From contig BOKZ01000001.1 in the NCBI GenBank assembly GCA_016861245.1, positions 188,347 through 252,346 of the forward strand: a DNA stretch of 64,000 nucleotides. The letters are read 5' to 3'. The DNA is from Patescibacteria group bacterium. GTDB lineage: Bacteria; Patescibacteriota; UBA1384; 2-12-FULL-50-11. The notes below the pieces were generated by a model that saw nothing but the letters and a program-made list of their open reading frames with translations, was not told the origin of the DNA and did not search any database. Shown here in pieces: positions 2,969 through 52,161 of the stretch (positions are counted from its first letter, which is position 1; every line of letters starts with the position of its first letter). The translations under genes were made by a program, and so were the position numbers.

Positions 2969-3262
2969 TTATTTTTCGATAATGCCGATAATCTCGTCTT
3001 CACGAAGAATTTTGTATTCAAATCCGTCGGCTTTATAGTCTTTGCCACCCCAATTTTCAAACAAAACTCGGTCGCCCTTCTTAAGCTCGATAGCGACGCG
3101 TTTGCTAGTGGTAACATCGAGACGGCCTGGACCCACAGCCACAACTTCGCCTTCTTGCGGTTTCTCCTTGGCGGTATCTGGAATAATAATTCCAGATTTC
3201 AGCGTCTGCTCGGCGCTGACTAACTTAACAACAACTCTATCTGCTAGCGGACGTATATTCAT
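2969..3262 (-). CDS. groS: co-chaperonin GroES
   Basis: 97 aa; immediately upstream of groEL in the same orientation; mobile-loop and GroES core motifs. Confidence 0.95.
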   Translation of the reverse strand: MNIRPLADRVVVKLVSAEQTLKSGIIIPDTAKEKPQEGEVVAVGPGRLDVTTSKRVAIELKKGDRVLFENWGGKDYKADGFEYKILREDEIIGIIEK

Positions 3263-3301: not shown

Positions 3302-3330
3302 ATTGTAAAGTGTACTTTACATAGAGTCAA
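3302..3330 (-). promoter_or_regulatory. sigma70-like promoter of groES-groEL (TTGACT-17-TACAAT on minus strand)
   Basis: rc of 3325-3330 = TTGACT, rc of 3302-3307 = TACAAT, 17-nt spacer; no CIRCE inverted repeat found. Confidence 0.5.
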
Positions 3331-3367: not shown

Positions 3368-3997
3368 TTACTTGAGAGCAACCTTGGTTGTGGCCAACGC
3401 ATCACGGAATACGAGCGCGTACGACGGGTGAAGAATTCGCGGAGCCAACGACGAGCCGCCGTCCATGTGCACCATCGCCTCAAAGCCCCACTGCTTAGCC
3501 AGTCGTAAACAGTCCCAACGATTCCCGCGCATCTTGACTCGAAAGTAGTAATTTCCTTTCGTCGCCCAGAATTGCCGCCAGAGCTTTTGCTCGGGAGCAG
3601 GCGGGATCGTCATGCCAGCTAACGCCCAATCCGGTGTGCCAGCAGCGAGACAGCTCGCGGCGTTTGGGTAGATCACAACTCTGCCGTTGCTGTAACCGGC
3701 CAGGACTTTGCGAGTTCCGCAATACGGACCGATCTTGCGGACACCGTTTTCGATCGTCAGGTCGACGCCGCAACGAAGCTTTCTGCCGTCGATCGTTCGT
3801 TCGCCGTAGAAACCGGCCACCGTCACGAAATCCGCGCCAGTTGCGGTTTGTACCCAGTTGGGGTACTTGCCACCGCGATAGTGGCGGACTTCGAGTCGGT
3901 CTTTAGTCATGTCGAATCGCTCTACCTCTAACGCGAAGCTAGCGGGGGAGACGAAAACCAGAAGCTGAATCAGCACGAGTTTGGATATTTGTTTCAT
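3368..3997 (-). CDS. secreted protein, phosphodiester-glycosidase-like (DUF2233/NAGPA-like)
   Basis: Start moved to MKQISKLVLIQLLVFVSPASFA (signal peptide) at 3997. HMDGGSS motif resembles the DGGGSS signature of phosphodiester glycosidases. Gene is visibly GC-richer than its flanks. GGCCCC-gttt-GGGGCC hairpin at 3347-3362 just downstream. Confidence 0.45.
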   Translation of the reverse strand: MKQISKLVLIQLLVFVSPASFALEVERFDMTKDRLEVRHYRGGKYPNWVQTATGADFVTVAGFYGERTIDGRKLRCGVDLTIENGVRKIGPYCGTRKVLAGYSNGRVVIYPNAASCLAAGTPDWALAGMTIPPAPEQKLWRQFWATKGNYYFRVKMRGNRWDCLRLAKQWGFEAMVHMDGGSSLAPRILHPSYALVFRDALATTKVALK

Positions 3998-4081
3998 GAG
4001 ATACGTCCTTGTATGTAGGGTGCGTATTGTTAACGCTACTGCATTTAAACCAAGGAGGAAAATTGTCAATACCTCTTTTGC

Positions 4082-4124
4082 GAGGGTAGGGGGACCTACT
4101 ATCGTAAGCGCTCCCCCTACCCTC
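4082..4124. repeat. perfect 13-bp inverted repeat (GAGGGTAGGGGGA / TCCCCCTACCCTC) with 17-nt loop
   Basis: Read directly; lies in the 316-bp spacer between the 3368..3997 gene and trpS. Confidence 0.8.
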
Positions 4125-4154
4125 AACCTCCCACCCCCTTGCACTCTTAGAGAC

Positions 4155-4191
4155 AAGAAACTTCGAGCCATGGGACAGCGAGAAGTTTCTT
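4155..4191. repeat. perfect 10-bp inverted repeat (AAGAAACTTC / GAAGTTTCTT) with 17-nt loop containing AUGG
   Basis: Read directly. Confidence 0.8.
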
Positions 4192-4230
4192 ACCACATCT
4201 CGCTAGAGAGCGTGCGGGGTATAGGGGTGT

Positions 4231-4271
4231 GGGGATCTAGGGACTGCTTCGCAATTAAGTCCCTGATCCCC
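4231..4271. repeat. 14-bp interrupted inverted repeat (GGGGATCtAGGGACT / AGTCCCTGATCCCC) with 12-nt loop
   Basis: Read directly; followed by acaatttt. Confidence 0.75.
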
Positions 4272-4313
4272 ACAATTTTAAATAAGTAGCTTAAACAGCT
4301 AGAATAGCTTCAA

Positions 4314-5285
4314 ATGAAACGACTGGTTAGCGGCTTACAACCAACGGGCTCACTGCACTTAGGCAACTACATCGGCGCGATCGCGCAATTTGTTGAGCTA
4401 CAACATCAATACGATTCGTTTTTTTTCGTCGCTGATTATCACTCGCTCACCGGCCGCCCAACTAAGAAAGAGTTAACTGCGAGTACTTACCACGTTCTAG
4501 CGATGTTAATTGCTTGCGGCGTTGACCCGCGCTCAGCGACGGTGTTTGTTCAGTCCCAGGTTCCAGAGCACACCGAGTTAAGTTGGATTTTTAGCAACTT
4601 CTGCTCGGTCGGGCAGCTGAAACGGATGACCCAATACAAAGAAAAGTCCGATCAGTACGGCCAGAACGTCGGCCTTTTCACCTATCCCGTCTTAATGGCC
4701 GCCGACGTGGCGCTCTATCAAGCTGAAGTGGTACCGGTCGGTGACGATCAAATTCAGCACCTAGAGCTCGCTCGTGAGATTATCCGCAGCGTCAACGCCC
4801 ACGCCGGCAACGTCTTTACCGAGCCGAAGCCGCTACTAACAAAAGGTTCACGAATTATGTCGCTCTCAGACCCAACCAAAAAGATGAGTAAAAGTCTTGC
4901 CGGTAGCGCTATCGGACTGCTCGACGACGAAGCGACGATTATTAGAAATATCAAGCGCGCCGTTACCGACTCCGATCCGAACTCCGCTAAGCCAAGTAAA
5001 GCACTGCAAAATTTATTCACGATTCTGGAAGTTGTCGCAGGACCCGAAGCCGTGAAAGATATGGAGGCGATGCGCAAAGACGGTAAACTGCGCTACAGCG
5101 AACTAAAGGAGCTACTTATCGAGGAGACACTGCACTTCTTAGAGCCGATTCAAAAGACCTACAGCTCGTTAATCAAAGATCCTAAAGCACTCGAATTAAT
5201 GGCGCTCAACGGCTCTAGGCGCGCCCGAACAATCGCCCAAGAAAACTTATCGATCGCCAAAAAAGCACTCGGTTTAGTTGGATAA
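4314..5285 (+). CDS. trpS: tryptophan--tRNA ligase
   Basis: Class I aaRS HIGH-type motif (GSLHLGNYIG) and KMSKS motif; TrpRS length and layout. Confidence 0.93.
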   Translation: MKRLVSGLQPTGSLHLGNYIGAIAQFVELQHQYDSFFFVADYHSLTGRPTKKELTASTYHVLAMLIACGVDPRSATVFVQSQVPEHTELSWIFSNFCSVGQLKRMTQYKEKSDQYGQNVGLFTYPVLMAADVALYQAEVVPVGDDQIQHLELAREIIRSVNAHAGNVFTEPKPLLTKGSRIMSLSDPTKKMSKSLAGSAIGLLDDEATIIRNIKRAVTDSDPNSAKPSKALQNLFTILEVVAGPEAVKDMEAMRKDGKLRYSELKELLIEETLHFLEPIQKTYSSLIKDPKALELMALNGSRRARTIAQENLSIAKKALGLVG

Positions 5286-5354
5286 TTAGCCGTTGATTTT
5301 CAGCCGGGATCGGATCAGGCTTTAAGCATCTAATGCGCCTGCTGGCGCAAGGAG

Positions 5355-5576
5355 GTGAAACATTTGGAAGCCAAACCATCACGAGTTCAGGGCGGCGATC
5401 AGTCAATAGAGCCTAGCCGCCTACTTTGCTTTTTTTGTAGGCGACAACAAAAATTGACGCCACTACGCGGAGCCTTGCAGCTTCGCAACTACACCGTAAC
5501 AGTAGACGGTACGACGTACGGAGTGTGCCCCGAGCATGAGAACGACTATCTGGCCTTGCAGAAACGACTATGTTAG
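5355..5576 (+). CDS. small zinc-ribbon-like protein (CxxC...CxxH)
   Basis: 73 aa; CFFC...GVCPEH. Start is GTG at 5355 directly abutting AAGGAGG, or more likely TTG at 5364 (9-nt spacing). Paralogous to the next ORF. Confidence 0.4.
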   Translation: MKHLEAKPSRVQGGDQSIEPSRLLCFFCRRQQKLTPLRGALQLRNYTVTVDGTTYGVCPEHENDYLALQKRLC

Positions 5577-5616
5577 GCCGCACCGCTAGCCGGGTTGGTA
5601 AGACCTGGCTAGATTA

Positions 5617-5645
5617 TTGAAATTTGGGCGATATTTTTTTATACT
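5617..5645 (+). promoter_or_regulatory. sigma70-like promoter TTGAAA-17-TATACT
   Basis: -35 at 5617-5622, -10 at 5640-5645; upstream of the second Zn-ribbon ORF (TTG start 5667 with GGAGGA RBS at 5656-5661). Confidence 0.45.
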
Positions 5646-5666
5646 ATTTGTTCTTGGAGGATTTTT

Positions 5667-5906
5667 TTGAACCTAGAAAGCCCAATCAGAATGAGTCACG
5701 CCCTGCCGACGGAGAAGCGACTGCCGGACGTCAGGATACCGGAAGGGGTAACTTTCATTCCCTTCTGCCGAGGGTGCGAACAACACAAGAATATGAGAGT
5801 GCGCGTCAACCAGCGAACCTGGAGTGAGGGGCGACGCGTCCGCCTAAGCGACGGCGTCTATCAAGGCGTCTGCACTCCATGCTGGAACTGCGGCGTTCGA
5901 TCCTAA
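5667..5906 (+). CDS. small zinc-ribbon-like protein (CxxC...CxxCxxC)
   Basis: 79 aa; FCRGC...GVCTPCWNC; same layout as the 5355 ORF (CxxC, about 30 aa, GVCxxC/H); TTG start. Confidence 0.4.
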   Translation: MNLESPIRMSHALPTEKRLPDVRIPEGVTFIPFCRGCEQHKNMRVRVNQRTWSEGRRVRLSDGVYQGVCTPCWNCGVRS

Positions 5907-5913
5907 CACCACA

Positions 5914-5938
5914 ACGGGCCTTCGGGCCTATTTTTTTT
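5914..5938. terminator. bidirectional rho-independent terminator
   Basis: GGCC-ttcg-GGCC hairpin (5917-5928) followed by T8 run; sits between convergent genes. Confidence 0.55.
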
Positions 5939-25326: not shown

Positions 25327-26702
25327 TTCTTCAGTAGCTGTCCAGAGACCTTTAAAGACCGGAGACCAAAGTAAGGATAAGCTGTGTAACCCAACTCCTT
25401 GTTTGACACCCTAATATAAACGGTGTGAGAGTCATTATTATTGTCGGCTGAGCCAGAATACTGACCAGCGCCCAACTGCGAGTTCTCGTTAATGACGAAC
25501 CATTCTTGACCATCAAAGGACATCTCAAGCAGAACATCGTTGTACTCAGAGTAGAGACGACTAGCTTGCATCGAAGCTGATAGCACTGGCGACGACAATT
25601 CGCAAACAAAGGTAAAGGAAGCACCAATTGACTTGTTCATGATTAGCGACTTTTCTGAGTAGCTATACCTGGCAACAGCATCACCAGAAGTATCCAAGAT
25701 CATTAGACGATCCGTTGGCTCTCCGGAGGTGCTGCACGAGTATTGTTCTCGTGTTAAACTAATTTGATCAAGATATGTGCCTATAGAAATTAGTGACTGT
25801 TTAGGTCGGGATAGTCGCAACGAAACGCCCTCAATTGAATTCACAGTAGTACCATCGACTTTCACTCTAGAAGCCGCCAAGATACCGTTTATAAAAATGT
25901 GACTCATTCTGGTGGGACGAGACTGGGCTGGGGTAATAACAACGATATACTCCTGAGCGTTTTTAACTCTGCTAGCAAGTGGTAGATATATCCAACCATC
26001 TTTAATAGCACTCACACCAGTGAATTCGACTGTAGAAATGGCTTTCTCTGACGATAGTACCTCTAGTTTTTTTTCATAGAGACTTGCCTCATACCTCCCA
26101 CCGCCATTACCAATGTAGCCGCCTTTAACTGAGATAGATTGAAGCTTGTCAGTCTTGGGGGTAATAGAGAAAAAAACGGGAGAAAATATCGATACTTCTC
26201 TATCAACTTTTGGATCATTTTCAAGATAAACTTCTTGACTGTAAGGGCTGGCATAATCCGAGCTACCACCAGGAACATCTAGCCCAATCAGCCTGACTTG
26301 ATCGATAAATACTTTTGCACGGAGCTGGGGGTTTTTTTTGGCGACTACTATTGAGTCAACCGTTTTCCCATTTAGTTCGAAGTTCTTATAGAAGTATTGA
26401 GGTTCACCGGGGTGGACCGTAAAACTACCGATTAGCAGCGAGTCCGATCCAACAGTGTGAGTAATTAATTGCATCTCAACTAACTCAGTGCTCTCTGTTT
26501 TTGCAATAAAAGCAACTCGATATGAGCCATCACCAAGATTTGTATGGCTAATGATCTCAAGTGATGCGTTCGATTCTCCAAGTTCATAACTAAAGCTATT
26601 CTCTTTTATTTCTTCAAATGCGTTCGGACGTGCACCGAAAACGAGTAACAAAATGAAAAGCAGGGAAAGAAACCAGTACCGATTAGGTGTTAGTTGAAGC
26701 AT
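25323..26702 (-). CDS. secreted/anchored hypothetical protein
   Basis: Start reassigned to MLQLTPNRYWFLSLLFILLLVFGARP (ATG 26702) with a perfect AAGGAG RBS 6-7 nt upstream; beta-rich, no catalytic motif. Confidence 0.45.
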   Translation of the reverse strand: MLQLTPNRYWFLSLLFILLLVFGARPNAFEEIKENSFSYELGESNASLEIISHTNLGDGSYRVAFIAKTESTELVEMQLITHTVGSDSLLIGSFTVHPGEPQYFYKNFELNGKTVDSIVVAKKNPQLRAKVFIDQVRLIGLDVPGGSSDYASPYSQEVYLENDPKVDREVSIFSPVFFSITPKTDKLQSISVKGGYIGNGGGRYEASLYEKKLEVLSSEKAISTVEFTGVSAIKDGWIYLPLASRVKNAQEYIVVITPAQSRPTRMSHIFINGILAASRVKVDGTTVNSIEGVSLRLSRPKQSLISIGTYLDQISLTREQYSCSTSGEPTDRLMILDTSGDAVARYSYSEKSLIMNKSIGASFTFVCELSSPVLSASMQASRLYSEYNDVLLEMSFDGQEWFVINENSQLGAGQYSGSADNNNDSHTVYIRVSNKELGYTAYPYFGLRSLKVSGQLLKK

Positions 26703-37602: not shown

Positions 37603-37965
37603 ATGAATAACGAACGAGTTTATAAAATGGTGGTCGCCAAAGTATATCCGTTCTACGTAACTAAGGCCGAGAGAAAGGGGCGAGCGAAAAAGGAAGTCGA
37701 TCAGATTATCTGCTGGTTAACCGGATACAACCAAAAAGAGCTGGAAGCAAAGCTGGAACAGGGAACCGATTTTGAAAGTTTCTTCACTCAAGCTCCCAGG
37801 CCGAATCCTCTGCGCAGTCTCATAAGGGGCGTTATTTGCGGAGTTCGCGTAGAAGAGATTCAAGACCCAATTATGCGAGAAGTGCGATATCTCGACAAAC
37901 TCGTCGACGAGCTAGCTCATGGTAAGTCGATGGATAAAATCCTGCGAGCAGAACCCCAGAAATAG
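37603..37965 (+). CDS. DUF2200-like protein
   Basis: N-terminal [37 protein letters not shown] matches the DUF2200 consensus pattern. Confidence 0.45.
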
Positions 37966-37977
37966 CCCCTCAATCCC

Positions 37978-38006
37978 TTGACTTTTAACCAGTTATCTGG
38001 TATATT
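37978..38006 (+). promoter_or_regulatory. sigma70-like promoter TTGACT-17-TATATT
   Basis: -35 at 37978-37983, -10 at 38001-38006; AGGAG RBS before ATG 38058. Confidence 0.55.
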
Positions 38007-38057
38007 TCGGGCACAATTTCGCGTCCTAAAAAATGCGAAACGTACACAGGAGTTAAC

Positions 38058-38783
38058 ATGAAGATCGCTACGATTATCGTTCTCGCCATCTTGGCGAGCT
38101 TGGGCTTTGCCCAAAGTATCGACGACCTGGGCGGCGGCAACGCTCGCCCCACGACACCGCAAACGCGCGGGCCTATCAATTGGTCCGCCCCATTCGAACT
38201 CGCCTTGGGCGAAAACGGCTGGGAGATGTCCGGCGGGCCCTATTCCCGAGAAGTCCTCTTCGGCCTTGTGGCCGAGTTGGTGAACCAGGAGTGGGGCGGA
38301 CAAGTTGGTTCGAGTACGCTCGAACTACTCAACGAGGCCTCCCAGCGCGACGCGCTGTGGAACAACCGCTGGATTGCCGACTCTGCCAGACTGCGTGAGC
38401 GAACGCTCGAACCGAGCGAGTACGGCCTGGAGATCGCTACTGGCGGCTCCAACGGCGGCGGATCGCGCGGCATGAACCTCTCCTTAGGAGGAGTAAACAT
38501 CTCGCTCGAGTCGGGATCGGCCGAAGCGATCATCGTCGTCCATCTTAAGGATCTGGTAACAGGTCGGCGAGTGAAGACGTTCGTTGGTCGAGCCAAGTAC
38601 GGCTCCACCAACCTCGAGGGTCTGTCGGTTGATCGACTGTTTGCCGGCTTCAAAATCGGCAACCAGTTCCGGCTGGATCAATGGGATAACAATCCCGAGT
38701 TCCGGCGCGGAATGATCGCCACGGCCAGGGCTCTTGAGGACTTGCGCAAGAAGATGCGCGAGTTCAAATCCACTTCCCGGTAG
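38058..38783 (+). CDS. secreted hypothetical protein (GC-rich gene)
   Basis: Signal peptide MKIATIIVLAILASLGFAQS; about 60% GC by eye versus about 45-50% for neighbours; own promoter and terminator. Confidence 0.5.
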   Translation: MKIATIIVLAILASLGFAQSIDDLGGGNARPTTPQTRGPINWSAPFELALGENGWEMSGGPYSREVLFGLVAELVNQEWGGQVGSSTLELLNEASQRDALWNNRWIADSARLRERTLEPSEYGLEIATGGSNGGGSRGMNLSLGGVNISLESGSAEAIIVVHLKDLVTGRRVKTFVGRAKYGSTNLEGLSVDRLFAGFKIGNQFRLDQWDNNPEFRRGMIATARALEDLRKKMREFKSTSR

Positions 38784-51286: not shown

Positions 51287-51575
51287 ACGACTAAGTAATT
51301 TTTTAGGAAACGACTACCAAAAGAATTACCTGCAAAAAATATATCTAGCTCAAAAACTGCAAGAGCAGATTCAAAAAATCGTACCTGGTGAGTGCACGGT
51401 GATAATTAAGAGCCAGACGCTCGTAATAGAAGGGACGTCGTCAGTGTATTTACAGGCGCTAAAACTTCACCAGCGGGCTATATACGCTCAAATTAAGCGC
51501 ATTACGCCCGAACTCTACCGGACAGAGCGTCCAAAGTTACAGCTCCGACTAAAGCGATCTAATTATTCGTCGTGA
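51276..51575 (+). CDS. DUF721/DciA-like protein (putative helicase-loading factor)
   Basis: About 100 aa; overlaps the recF 3' end by 11 nt; pattern TVIIKSQTLVIEGTSSVYLQALKLHQRAIYAQIKRI resembles DUF721; start chosen at ATG 51276. Confidence 0.4.
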   Translation: MTLERLSNFLGNDYQKNYLQKIYLAQKLQEQIQKIVPGECTVIIKSQTLVIEGTSSVYLQALKLHQRAIYAQIKRITPELYRTERPKLQLRLKRSNYSS

Positions 51576-52161
51576 AATCAATAATAGTTGCTGGTATGGA
51601 ACTCGGGACTCCTCGCTCCTTTAACCAGTTCTTGGCGGCAGCCGCGACTATATCTCGCTCTTCTATATAGCTTTTTCCGTCTTTCGGGGTGGTAAAGCGA
51701 TGTTTCACTGAAACAGTAATCGCAGTAATTGACTCGTTATTATGGGTAGCTGAGATCAAGTAATCGATTGTTTCGTGCGGAAACAGCTCTAAATAGGGAA
51801 CTTTTTTAGAAGGGTCTCCTTGGTAGAGTTTAATAAAATCGTCTCCTGAGACCGGACGGAAGTAGAGCAATAACTTATTATCTTTCCCTCTTTCAACACT
51901 GTAGCTCACCGAAACAGGGGCTGAGCCGTTGCCCCAAGCTGTTACCGAGTAGCTTCCCGGTCTCACCCTAGTGCTATACGGTAACGAGCGACTATTTTTA
52001 TGAGAGTCTTTGCTAGTAGTTGCTACTAAACCGGTTTTTATTTGGCTACTTGGGTCTATGCCAATACTAAACGGTACTGTCCGGCTGTACCAAGTAATAA
52101 GCCAAACAAGTAGCCCAAGTGTCGCGATGCCCAAGACAATAATCACTTTTTTACTAATCAT
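51559..52161 (-). CDS. membrane-anchored hypothetical protein (T4SS-cluster associated)
   Basis: Start MISKKVIIVLGIATLGLLVWLI at 52161 with GGAGG RBS; ATGA overlap with the upstream gene stop. Confidence 0.4.
   Translation of the reverse strand: MISKKVIIVLGIATLGLLVWLITWYSRTVPFSIGIDPSSQIKTGLVATTSKDSHKNSRSLPYSTRVRPGSYSVTAWGNGSAPVSVSYSVERGKDNKLLLYFRPVSGDDFIKLYQGDPSKKVPYLELFPHETIDYLISATHNNESITAITVSVKHRFTTPKDGKSYIEERDIVAAAAKNWLKERGVPSSIPATIIDFTTNN

Follow-up and report, generated by a model that had tools for sequence, protein, structure and literature searches.

MITE-like palindromic elements of intergenic DNA are represented by Correia/NEMIS in Neisseria, ERIC in enterobacteria, and BOX and RUP in pneumococcus. 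REP sequences and their BIME clusters are acted on by RAYT (TnpA-REP) HUH transposases, and the hairpin loops of rolling-circle/HUH systems carry nick sites such as CTACTCT/AATAG in pT181 and TACTACG/AC in pMV158. The genomes of CPR/Patescibacteria are tiny and tightly packed, and to our knowledge hardly anything is known of the non-coding elements that they contain. Here, we describe a non-coding module in a Berkelbacteria (CPR) genome, located in a window of 64 kb, which is the whole stretch of DNA that was analyzed. The module is one discrete, self-complementary DNA unit made of three hairpins, and we tentatively favor its interpretation as a palindromic insertion resembling MITEs and BIMEs.

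The module lies in a spacer of 316 bp (3998-4313) that separates two genes, both of which are its neighbors and not parts of it. On the minus strand, the ORF at 3368-3997, here called g209, encodes a 209-aa secreted-type protein with a predicted DUF2233/NAGPA fold. On the plus strand, trpS (4314-5285) encodes a tryptophan--tRNA ligase (PF00579) whose best named matches belong to Candidatus Berkelbacteria. The majority of ORF-to-ORF gaps in the window are shorter than 100 bp. An initial sequence-only reading had reported three long perfect inverted repeats in the 316-bp spacer and called their density exceptional, and both statements hold: the repeats lie at 4082-4124, 4155-4191, and 4228-4274, and they account for three of the eight perfect inverted repeats in the window that have an arm of at least 10 bp and a loop of 3-40. 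In 5000 dinucleotide shuffles of the spacer, such repeats occurred 0.011 times on average, and no shuffle (0/5000) contained two or more. The RNA fold of 3998-4330 has a z of -7.65 on the plus strand and -6.75 on the minus strand, and each hairpin folded alone as DNA gives a z between -4.1 and -6.5.

No strand is assigned to the hairpins, which are termed H1, H2, and H3. H1 (4082-4124) consists of the arms GAGGGTAGGGGGA (4082-4094) and TCCCCCTACCCTC (4112-4124), a 13-bp perfect stem with GTAG on both strands, closed by a 17-nt loop (CCTACTATCGTAAGCGC), exactly as first read. H2 (4155-4191) forms the center of the module; its arms AAGAAACTTC (4155-4164) and GAAGTTTCTT (4182-4191) make a 10-bp perfect stem, and its 17-nt loop (GAGCCATGGGACAGCGA) includes CCATGG and hence the AUGG that had been noted there. 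H3 (4228-4274) was initially described as a 14-bp interrupted stem; the interruption is real, a single bulged T, but the stem is 17 bp long, comprising 10 bp between TGTGGGGATC (4228-4237) and GATCCCCACA (4265-4274) and 7 bp in the inner pair AGGGACT/AGTCCCT, with a 12-nt loop (GCTTCGCAATTA). H3 is a diverged inverted paralogue of H1. Hairpins related to H1 also adjoin trpS in the related loci L135, L007, and L149, and among H1, H3, and the L007 hairpin about five stem positions differ, each time on both arms. The H3 loop motif GCTTCGCAA recurs in the L007 hairpin and in a relic of the module in L142. The starts of H1, H2, and H3 are spaced by exactly 73 and 73 bp, a period that results from the palindromic layout; the tRNA-like units at which it hinted were rejected, as ARAGORN and Rfam were negative. 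The module ends TTTTGCGAGGGTAGGGGGAC and, as reverse complement, TTGTGGGGATCAGGGAC resemble each other, which follows from the inverted paralogy of H1 and H3, and nhmmer matches the module to its own reverse complement, at only E~1e-3.

The boundaries of the module were set by aligning the window with L135, where it is inverted. They enclose approximately 4075-4276 (TTTTGCGAGGG...GATCCCCACAA, strand not assigned), about 200 bp of quasi-palindromic sequence. In L135, groEL/groES are 100% and g209 is 99.8% identical to the window, and the same 196-202 bp lies reversed beside the trpS promoter together with 1.5 kb of extra DNA. The module itself is 95.9% identical between the two, although the L135 flanks are 98-100% identical, and the promoter flank of L135 is 82% identical. 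The hairpins were moved as whole units, with no hybrid of H1 and H3. An imperfect 22-nt inverted repeat (73% complementary; left arm 4028-4049, right arm 4276-4297, no strand) has one arm in the g209 leader and the other in the trpS -35 region. Since these flanks are left behind by the module in L135, they probably relate to the promoters rather than marking the ends of the element, and a single long helix or closing stem between them was rejected as part of the unit.

Two orientations amid the same flanking genes, in strains that are almost identical, would also be expected of an inverton, a phase-variable segment flipped by a site-specific recombinase, and the module is indeed bordered by an 8-bp perfect inverted repeat (AAAATTGT/ACAATTTT) in addition to the 22-nt repeat, with contigs breaking at the module edge in three assemblies. 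We nevertheless consider an inverton improbable. The inverted copy is 4% different and comes with the 1.5 kb of extra DNA and the 82%-identical promoter flank, which mark it as a long-standing allele rather than a recent flip; the hairpins have moved whole, the segment holds no internal promoter, the nearby annotated flanks contain no invertase gene, and among the loci compared no one sample was represented by both orientations. The three assemblies (L006, L007, and L149) are independent and terminate within an H1-type hairpin upstream of trpS, which is compatible with repeats or with population heterogeneity at that point.

The same neighborhood occurs without the module in L014 (TrpS 76%), L142-144, L145, L150, and L151. 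When 4075-4276 is deleted from the window to reconstruct an empty site, about 30 nt remain between the TTGACA of g209 and the -10 box of trpS, and the corresponding distance in L142 is 35 nt. At another locus, flanked by the groEL terminator and a trmB-like gene, the distant relative L142 carries a partial copy of the module (nhmmer E=3.7e-10), and this copy is structurally decayed, with a fold z=-0.6. Apart from this relic, neither the 64-kb window nor about 260 kb of related loci yielded a second copy, with one copy per locus.

These comparative data are best fitted by a structured inserted element, one of the options offered at the outset. According to this tentative proposal, g209 and trpS would originally have been separated by a compact region of back-to-back promoters, into which the module would have been inserted. 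It would be a cassette whose history is its own: it occurs in both orientations, some relatives have it and others do not, and a decayed copy lies at another locus, which is how small palindromic mobile or recombining elements of the MITE, BIME-REP, or ERIC kind behave. The hairpins would then be the architecture of the element itself, H1 and H3 its hairpin-forming ends and H2 its center, and perfect complementarity of the arms may be kept by a trans-acting enzyme that recognizes hairpins or by template-switching self-correction of palindromes. We infer both the mobility of the module and the enzyme that would move it. Its presence would be tolerated because it lies upstream of both -35 boxes; the trpS mRNA does not include it.

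Several observations argue for insertion: the sharp boundaries and the inverted copy amid near-identical genes, a divergence of the module that is decoupled from its flanks in L011 and L135, presence or absence among relatives with an empty-site spacing of about 30 versus 35 nt, the decayed L142 copy at a different locus, TIR-like quasi-palindromic ends, and the contig ends of L006, L007, and L149 within the H1-type hairpin. The consensus scan found neither a sigma-70 promoter nor an intrinsic terminator inside the module, and the lack of these, of a conserved ORF, and of an Rfam match points the same way. Against insertion, neither the window nor the related loci hold a second intact copy; no direct repeat that could be a target-site duplication surrounds the module in either arrangement (flanks CCTC/TTTTAAAT in the window and GCAT/TTTTCTAA in L135); the ~18 kb of annotated sequence surrounding the locus revealed neither a transposase nor a recombinase; and the conserved tract matches the non-coding region, with loops and linkers conserved too.

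Searches beyond the relatives carried little information on copy number. The spacer has no blastn match in phages and plasmids, and scans of viral contigs gave nothing or a chance match within a coding region (L139). A scan of metagenome contigs for an H1-type stem with the start of its loop gave one match, to the GC-rich palindrome of a terminator on a contig that is unrelated. A scan of genome contigs for GGGTAGGGG-N10-30-CCCCTACCC found at least 120 loci, which are unrelated perfect palindromes of cyanobacteria, Chloroflexota, Streptomyces, and others; among the matches listed, none has the loops of the module and none belongs to Patescibacteria. Unrelated palindrome families of the form GGGTAGGGG...CCCCTACCC recur in Chamaesiphon and Chloroflexota. 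Literature searches found nothing relevant.

The module is also 95.9% identical to L011, where the flanking genes are only 78-87% identical and about 50% of third codon positions differ; H1 is 100% identical there. Across the entire intergenic region, conservation between the window and L011 is 88-100%. The limits of the strongly conserved tract are almost exactly those of the non-coding region; synonymous differences begin in trpS at codon 4 and in g209 at codon 3. Such limits suggest that a functional element is under purifying selection rather than that it was recently transferred. Conservation extends from the stems to the loops and linkers. Variable columns make up 3 of 78 in the stems and 16 of 125 elsewhere, and every stem change keeps pairing: in H2, L011 has one compensatory change from A-T to T-A, and in L135 one G-C pair has become G-T. 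Of the 39 hairpin pairs, 37 are invariant, one is compensatory, and one is a wobble (G-U on the plus strand). Covariation is not established, 100 of 500 shuffles doing equally well. An extended central helix around H2 was rejected, being broken by substitutions in L001, L011, and L135.

Such data bring a regulatory RNA into consideration, which was among the first suggestions and which we regard as possible but rather unlikely. It would be an independently functioning gene for a structured small RNA of about 200 nt with three stem-loops and conserved loops, for which orientation would be irrelevant. Conservation at the level of rRNA and tRNA (96% where synonymous sites are about 50% diverged), the avoidance of stems by substitutions with pairing always kept, the low folding z on the plus strand, the single copy found by nhmmer in the window and related loci, and loops conserved across paralogous hairpins all agree with an RNA. 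However, the module has no promoter or terminator and no room for either, because hairpins abut both of its boundaries, and from an external promoter the two arrangements would be transcribed on opposite strands. Furthermore, all stems are perfect in the Watson-Crick sense, a usual trait of DNA palindromes, substitutions disrupt the extended central helix, covariation is statistically empty, no Rfam family matches, and the L142 copy is not structured.

The alternative in which the sequence acts as DNA is similarly doubtful: an orientation-independent cis element, such as a binding platform, an insulator, or a supercoil/structure element, would be selected at two divergent promoters. The module lies exactly between the two -35 boxes, an H1/H3-type palindrome stands upstream of the trpS core promoter in every arrangement (the two are contiguous in the window, L135, and L007, whereas in L149 the palindrome lies about 50 nt farther away), the H1 half-sites are 30 bp apart from center to center, which is about three helical turns, and conservation against L011 extends over the whole intergenic region. 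In addition, the only two motifs of the G-quadruplex type, (G3+N1-7)x4, in the 64-kb window are both inside the module on opposite strands, compared with 0.07 per window in shuffles. The minus-strand motif GGGGGTGGGAGGTTGAGGGTAGGGGG (4113-4138) is mirrored about H2 by the plus-strand motif GGGGTATAGGGGTGTGGGGATCTAGGG (4216-4242), so that the two are placed symmetrically; they are kept in L135 and L142, but one G-tract of the latter is gone in L011. Stems whose loops measure 12-17 nt are unusual for operators and are poorly extruded as cruciforms, the arms of the paralogous hairpins co-vary and leave no fixed half-site sequence, close relatives express the same genes without the module, and no candidate binding protein was identified, all of which speak against a cis element.

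It is likewise conceivable, at low probability, that the module is a strongly selected, orientation-independent CPR element of a kind not yet described, either a new three-hairpin RNA of about 200 nt or a DNA structural element. In the latter form, the hairpins, together with the G-quadruplex motifs mirrored about H2 and a loop with CTACT that recalls the nick sites of HUH systems, would organize or insulate the back-to-back promoters or would mark a recombination hotspot, where genes such as that for the trypsin-like protease of L135 would be gained and lost.

The position of the trpS promoter bears on the suggestion that the hairpins are a structured leader of this gene. The sole consensus promoter that the scan places before trpS, TTTAAA-17-TAGAAT (4277-4305, plus strand), has its -10 box 8 nt before the ATG, and no Shine-Dalgarno sequence is present. 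TAGAAT stands at an equal distance from the ATG in L011, L135, L014, and L145. As the ATG follows the -10 box by only 8 nt, the mRNA is probably leaderless or nearly so, given the transcription start that we infer, and as this -10 box is conserved in relatives without hairpins, the hairpins sit upstream of the promoter. A trpS 5′ leader, whether a T-box riboswitch or a Trp-codon attenuator, is already contradicted, and we give it hardly any probability, even though the hairpins precede an aminoacyl-tRNA synthetase gene, AAUUUUAAAU comes after H3, and a 39-codon ORF that starts at the AUG of the H2 loop has its one UGG inside the 5′ arm of H3.

The further evidence on a leader is negative. Rfam searches of 2.4 kb and of 301 nt on both strands, the check that had been proposed, returned no T-box (RF00230) or Trp-leader match even at E<=10; at the gathering score the window contains no T-box; and at three scales Rfam gave nothing but miRNA-like and lncRNA noise. 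The T-box motif (..GGGTGGTACCGCG..) has no match with three or fewer mismatches inside 3998-4313, which confirms that the canonical motif is missing. Intact trpS genes are present both in L135, where the module is inverted, and in L014, which lacks it. The 39-codon ORF loses its start in L001 and its stop is not conserved; compared with L011 it shows two synonymous against six non-synonymous changes as well as a stop change, and its UGG is single, with no tandem Trp codons. No conserved ORF and no frame with a coding-like substitution pattern exists inside the module, and its six-frame translation matched none of 5.8 billion proteins; a leader peptide or small protein in the module was rejected. 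The trpS gene of this clade thus appears to be expressed from a promoter abutting the start codon, without a T-box or attenuator.

On the other side, the putative g209 5′ UTR and promoter region (3998-4074, minus strand) contains a -35-like TTGACA (4066-4061) and, 16 nt beyond it, TAAATG. L011, L135, and L142 retain the TTGACA, and 3998-4074 is 88-90% identical to L011. Extension of the g209 N-terminus to an ATG at 4171 was rejected because the frame upstream lacks conservation in L135 and because a signal peptide and a Shine-Dalgarno sequence (AAGGA) fit the start at 3997; the N-terminus is signal-peptide-like. Profiles of Pfam, NCBIfam, and the PDB sequence set gave no match to g209. Its AlphaFold model (pLDDT 74.6) matches 3ohg (Foldseek E=5.8e-5, TM 0.61) and the NAGPA structure 6pky_B (E=9.8e-4), which supports the first description as phosphodiester-glycosidase-like at the level of the predicted fold. 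The gene had also been called foreign, with a GC content of about 58%. Its GC is high, in the top 0.7% of 630-bp windows, but amounts to 56.3%, and the foreign origin does not survive comparison: homologues with 58% and 48% identity lie between groES and trpS in distant Berkelbacteria and are equally GC-enriched, and syntenic homologues were found in L142-L146. Recent horizontal origin was rejected on this synteny and common enrichment.

A 200-bp non-coding module that remains 96% identical while neighboring genes saturate at synonymous sites, and that flips, comes, and goes between strains, implies either that small palindromic mobile elements are active in reduced genomes of this kind or that it is a new functional RNA or DNA element.

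Compared with known systems, the module shares with T-box (RF00230) and Trp-operon attenuators only a structured sequence upstream of an aminoacyl-tRNA synthetase gene; unlike them, it has no covariance-model match, T-box motif, or conserved leader peptide, it lies upstream of the promoter, and neither its orientation nor its distance is fixed. Like the invertons fimS and hin, it is a short segment in both orientations between fixed flanks beside a promoter, but it lacks an internal promoter and a nearby recombinase, its flanking repeats are very short, and its two orientations are 4% diverged alleles and not interconverting states. The H1-type loops resemble HUH nick sites in presenting CTACT in a GC-rich stem (CCTACTATCG in the window, GCTACTTGCG in L007, GCTACTCTTG in L149), a likeness of 5-7 nt that may be due to chance and serves only as a lead; no Rep or relaxase gene was found, in contrast to those systems, and the context is chromosomal.

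With REP/BIME sequences, the module has in common GC-rich extragenic palindromes of alternating orientation, H1 and H3 being mutually inverted, and GTAG, which is present on both H1 arms and in the L007 and L149 hairpin stems, whereas H3 has CTAG instead. REPs have short loops and high copy numbers, while the loops of the module are 12-20 nt long and conserved in sequence, and no RAYT gene was found in the annotated flanks of the locus. MITE-like families comprise tens to hundreds of copies with target-site duplications and defined terminal inverted repeats, whereas for the module one intact copy per genome sample and one relic were seen, there is no duplication, and the "terminal repeats" are two diverged hairpins. 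In its other properties the module resembles them: at about 200 bp without coding capacity it falls within the usual MITE size (below ~500 bp), and, like these elements, it is a non-coding, intergenic sequence in the range of 100-250 bp that can fold into long hairpins, occurs in either orientation, is present or absent between close strains, and lies beside promoters, as such elements often do.

The closest proteins to the TrpS of the window are named as Candidatus Berkelbacteria or Patescibacteria. The trpS gene (4314-5285, plus strand) lies back to back with a gene for a 209-aa protein, here called g209 (3368-3997), which is followed by groES (2969-3262) and groEL (1331-2959), all three on the minus strand. 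Because g209 and trpS are divergent, both promoters must sit in the 316-bp spacer between them (3998-4313); a TTGACA -35-like box for g209 is found at 4066-4061 on the minus strand. Directly downstream of groEL lies a MazE-antitoxin/PIN-domain toxin pair (557-1236), which is missing in some strains, and the related loci L001-L003 carry other genes there. The 651-bp gap 3' of trpS (5286-5936) holds two small Cys-rich ORFs with CxxC-type motifs (5355-5576 and 5667-5906); conservation among close strains is lowest here (94.5% vs 98-99%), identity to the related locus L011 is 73%, and the small genes called in this place differ in relatives. The groES promoter, TTGACT-17-TACAAT (3302-3330, minus strand), encloses between its -35 and -10 boxes a perfect inverted repeat, TGTAAAGT-N2-ACTTTACA (3309-3326), and GATTGTAAAG-N4-CTTTACAT is kept upstream of groES in L011, L014, L150, and L151. 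The repeat is a candidate heat-shock operator that differs from the classical CIRCE sequence. In L009 a unique insertion of about 209 bp (L009 182-390, at about 3340 of the window) separates the groES promoter from the g209 terminator. It contains a -10-like TATAGT box as well as a clean intrinsic terminator, AACCGGCtattGCCGGTTTTTTT, matches nothing in Rfam, recurs in none of the related loci compared, and is a candidate strain-specific small-RNA gene.

The sequence-only reading regarded g209 as foreign. Its GC content is elevated (56.3% vs 47.1%), although less so than the 58% estimated by eye, but the excess is common to homologues in four lineages and is thus a family property that does not point to recent transfer. 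The gene is syntenic in relatives (58% identity in L142-144, where it is kept between groES and trpS, and 48% in L145/146) and, as judged from these comparisons, is ancestral at this position. Its proposed likeness to phosphodiester glycosidases is supported only at the level of the predicted fold, for which DUF2233 (3ohg) and the catalytic domain of NAGPA are matches; sequence profiles are silent. GC content peaks elsewhere in the window, at 37850-38300 (61% at most in 630-bp windows), where the sequence overlaps a 241-aa ORF (38058-38783) and is flanked by two tRNA-Ser genes.

The three inverted repeats reported in the spacer are real, as confirmed by repeat search, shuffles, and folding. 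H1 (arms 4082-4094/4112-4124) has a 13-bp perfect stem and a 17-nt loop, and H2 (4155-4164/4182-4191) has a 10-bp perfect stem whose 17-nt loop contains CCATGG and so the AUGG noted earlier. The third stem, H3 (4228-4237/4265-4274 plus an inner 7-bp helix), described as 14 bp and interrupted, is instead 17 bp with one bulged T and a 12-nt loop. These are three of the eight perfect inverted repeats of at least 10 bp in the whole 64 kb, while shuffled spacers contain a mean of 0.011 and never two. The spacer folds much better than shuffles on both strands (z = -7.65 and -6.75), as does each hairpin individually, DNA parameters included. H1 on the minus strand (TAGGGGGA-GCGCTTACGATAGTAGG-TCCCCCTA) and H3 on the plus strand (TAGGGACT-GCTTCGCAATTA-AGTCCCTGA) are diverged copies of one hairpin, and the whole module, a palindromic non-coding unit of about 200 bp centered on H2, matches its own reverse complement, a larger symmetry that accounts for the exact 73/73-bp hairpin spacing. 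The only two canonical G-quadruplex motifs in the window (0.07 expected from shuffles) both fall within the module, one per strand and mirrored about H2; one tract is missing in L011, so that the motifs may simply result from the G-rich stems.

A structured leader for trpS, such as a T-box or attenuator, was one earlier proposal, and we now regard it as hardly credible. The only consensus promoter before trpS, TTTAAA-17-TAGAAT (4277-4305), lies downstream of the hairpins, and the trpS ATG follows its -10 box by 8 nt without a Shine-Dalgarno sequence. TAGAAT stands at the same distance in hairpin-free relatives (L014, GGCTAGAATAACATCAAGATG; L145, GTTAGAATCTGATCAGATG), and trpS is therefore most likely leaderless, with a start position inferred from sequence and the hairpins upstream of its promoter. 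Rfam searches, including one of 301 nt with relaxed filters, matched no bacterial family, T-box and Trp-leader models included, and a sequence search of the spacer agreed with the earlier reading that the canonical T-box motif is not present. An ORF from the AUG in the H2 loop was rejected: its ATG is ATA in L001, most of its changes relative to L011 alter the amino acid, and its stop codon is not retained there. Elsewhere in the otherwise tightly packed window, 25415-26682 (1268 bp) and 51287-52157 (871 bp) have no ORF of at least 90 aa and no Rfam match.

The module is not universal at this locus. In L014 (TrpS 76%) groES adjoins trpS across a 126-bp spacer without it, the 133-bp spacer of L142-144 is hairpin-free, and it is also missing in L145/146, L150, and L151. 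With 4075-4276 deleted in silico, the g209 -35 box and the trpS -10 box would be about 30 nt apart, compared with 35 nt in L142, so the module has the appearance of a clean insertion between two closely spaced, divergent promoters. In L135, whose groEL and groES are 100% and g209 99.8% identical to those of the window, the common sequence, from TTTTGCGAGGG to GATCCCCACAA (window ~4075-4276), is inverted with respect to the genes on either side, with H1 abutting the trpS promoter. An inversion switch is nevertheless a very improbable reading; window and L135 have no hybrid H1/H3 hairpins, and the annotated flanks contain no recombinase or transposase. A target-site duplication is seen in neither arrangement. 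The module of L135 is further separated from the g209 promoter by 1.5 kb of additional DNA, consisting of a Zn-ribbon/trypsin-like protease gene (L135 1163-2134) and about 350 bp without a recognisable gene (808-1162), which marks the spacer as a hotspot where genes come and go; in L145 the corresponding position is occupied by a GH42-like gene. Upstream of trpS, L006 and L007 (TrpS 100%) and L149 (72%) have an H1-type hairpin, GGGGTAGGGG-CAGCGCTTCGCAAGTAGCAC-CCCCTACCCC, oriented as in L135, and all three are independent assemblies that stop within it (1-24, 1-40, and 1-32, respectively). Nine assemblies read through the three-hairpin module without break, and the three contig ends could reflect a repeated sequence, a heterogeneous population, or a fall in coverage.

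Conservation of the module is discordant with that of its surroundings. Between the window and L011, TrpS is 92% identical in amino acids, flanking genes are 78-87% identical in nucleotides, and the fraction of differing third codon positions is 0.50 in trpS and 0.46 in g209, and synonymous differences appear from the first few codons of either gene, whereas the module is 95.9% and H1 100% identical; the trpS promoter flank (97.4%) and g209 leader/promoter (88%) are the other non-coding parts. Relative to L135 the flanking genes are 98-100% identical, the module again 95.9%, and the trpS-proximal flank 82%. The three versions are about equidistant (8, 8, and 10 differences) and do not reflect how the hosts are related. 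Strong selection on the module, combined with an old or imported allele in L135, would explain this, as would movement of copies between lineages. Only 3 of 78 stem columns vary, with pairing kept in all, compared with 16 of 125 other columns; 37 of 39 pairs are invariant, which leaves a covariation test powerless (100 of 500 shuffles were as good). Among the paralogous hairpins H1, H3, and that of L007, about five stem positions differ, on both arms each time, so pairing is maintained, although palindrome self-correction at the DNA level would equally produce two-arm changes. This remarkable conservation, coincident with the non-coding tract, favours the two main rival readings. One is a so far undescribed ncRNA gene, to which we give a rather low probability: the module has no sigma-70-type promoter or intrinsic terminator, its hairpins reach both boundaries so that an internal or unconventional promoter would be needed, and a promoter in the flanks would read the module from opposite strands in the window and L135 arrangements. 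The other is an orientation-independent DNA regulatory or structural element, which we rate about the same.

Presence and absence, the inversion in L135, and a history of its own make an inserted element, also raised earlier, the best-supported reading. On this reading the module came to lie upstream of two promoters, with hairpins that would be its own architecture; it has no conserved reading frame. One further match to its profile was found in about 260 kb of Berkelbacteria DNA (L142 6604-6739, minus strand, E=3.7e-10), in the gap that separates the groEL terminator from the 3' end of a trmB-like gene. It keeps a core of about 65 nt, GCGTGC-GGGTA-AGGGGTGTGGGGA..TAGGG.CTGCTTCGCAA.TA, with the H3 outer stem unpartnered and no unusual structure (z = -0.57), and looks like a decayed copy. 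Stem-based pattern scans of two large sequence collections gave unrelated palindromes among the matches listed: perfect GGGTAGGGG...CCCCTACCC palindromes recur in several Chamaesiphon genomes (GGGTAGGGGCAATTCATGAATTGCCCCTACCC), Anaerolineales, and Dehalococcoidia (L015-L134). They appear to be REP-like repeat families carrying GTAG, with no relation to the module loops.

A small palindromic insertion of the MITE, BIME, or ERIC kind is thus the reading that we tentatively prefer. The module differs from a MITE in having no target-site duplication; for this reason, and because a second intact copy is not seen in the window, we do not file it as a MITE or REP. The CTACT common to H1-type loops resembles, as a lead only, the nick-site loops of rolling-circle replicons.
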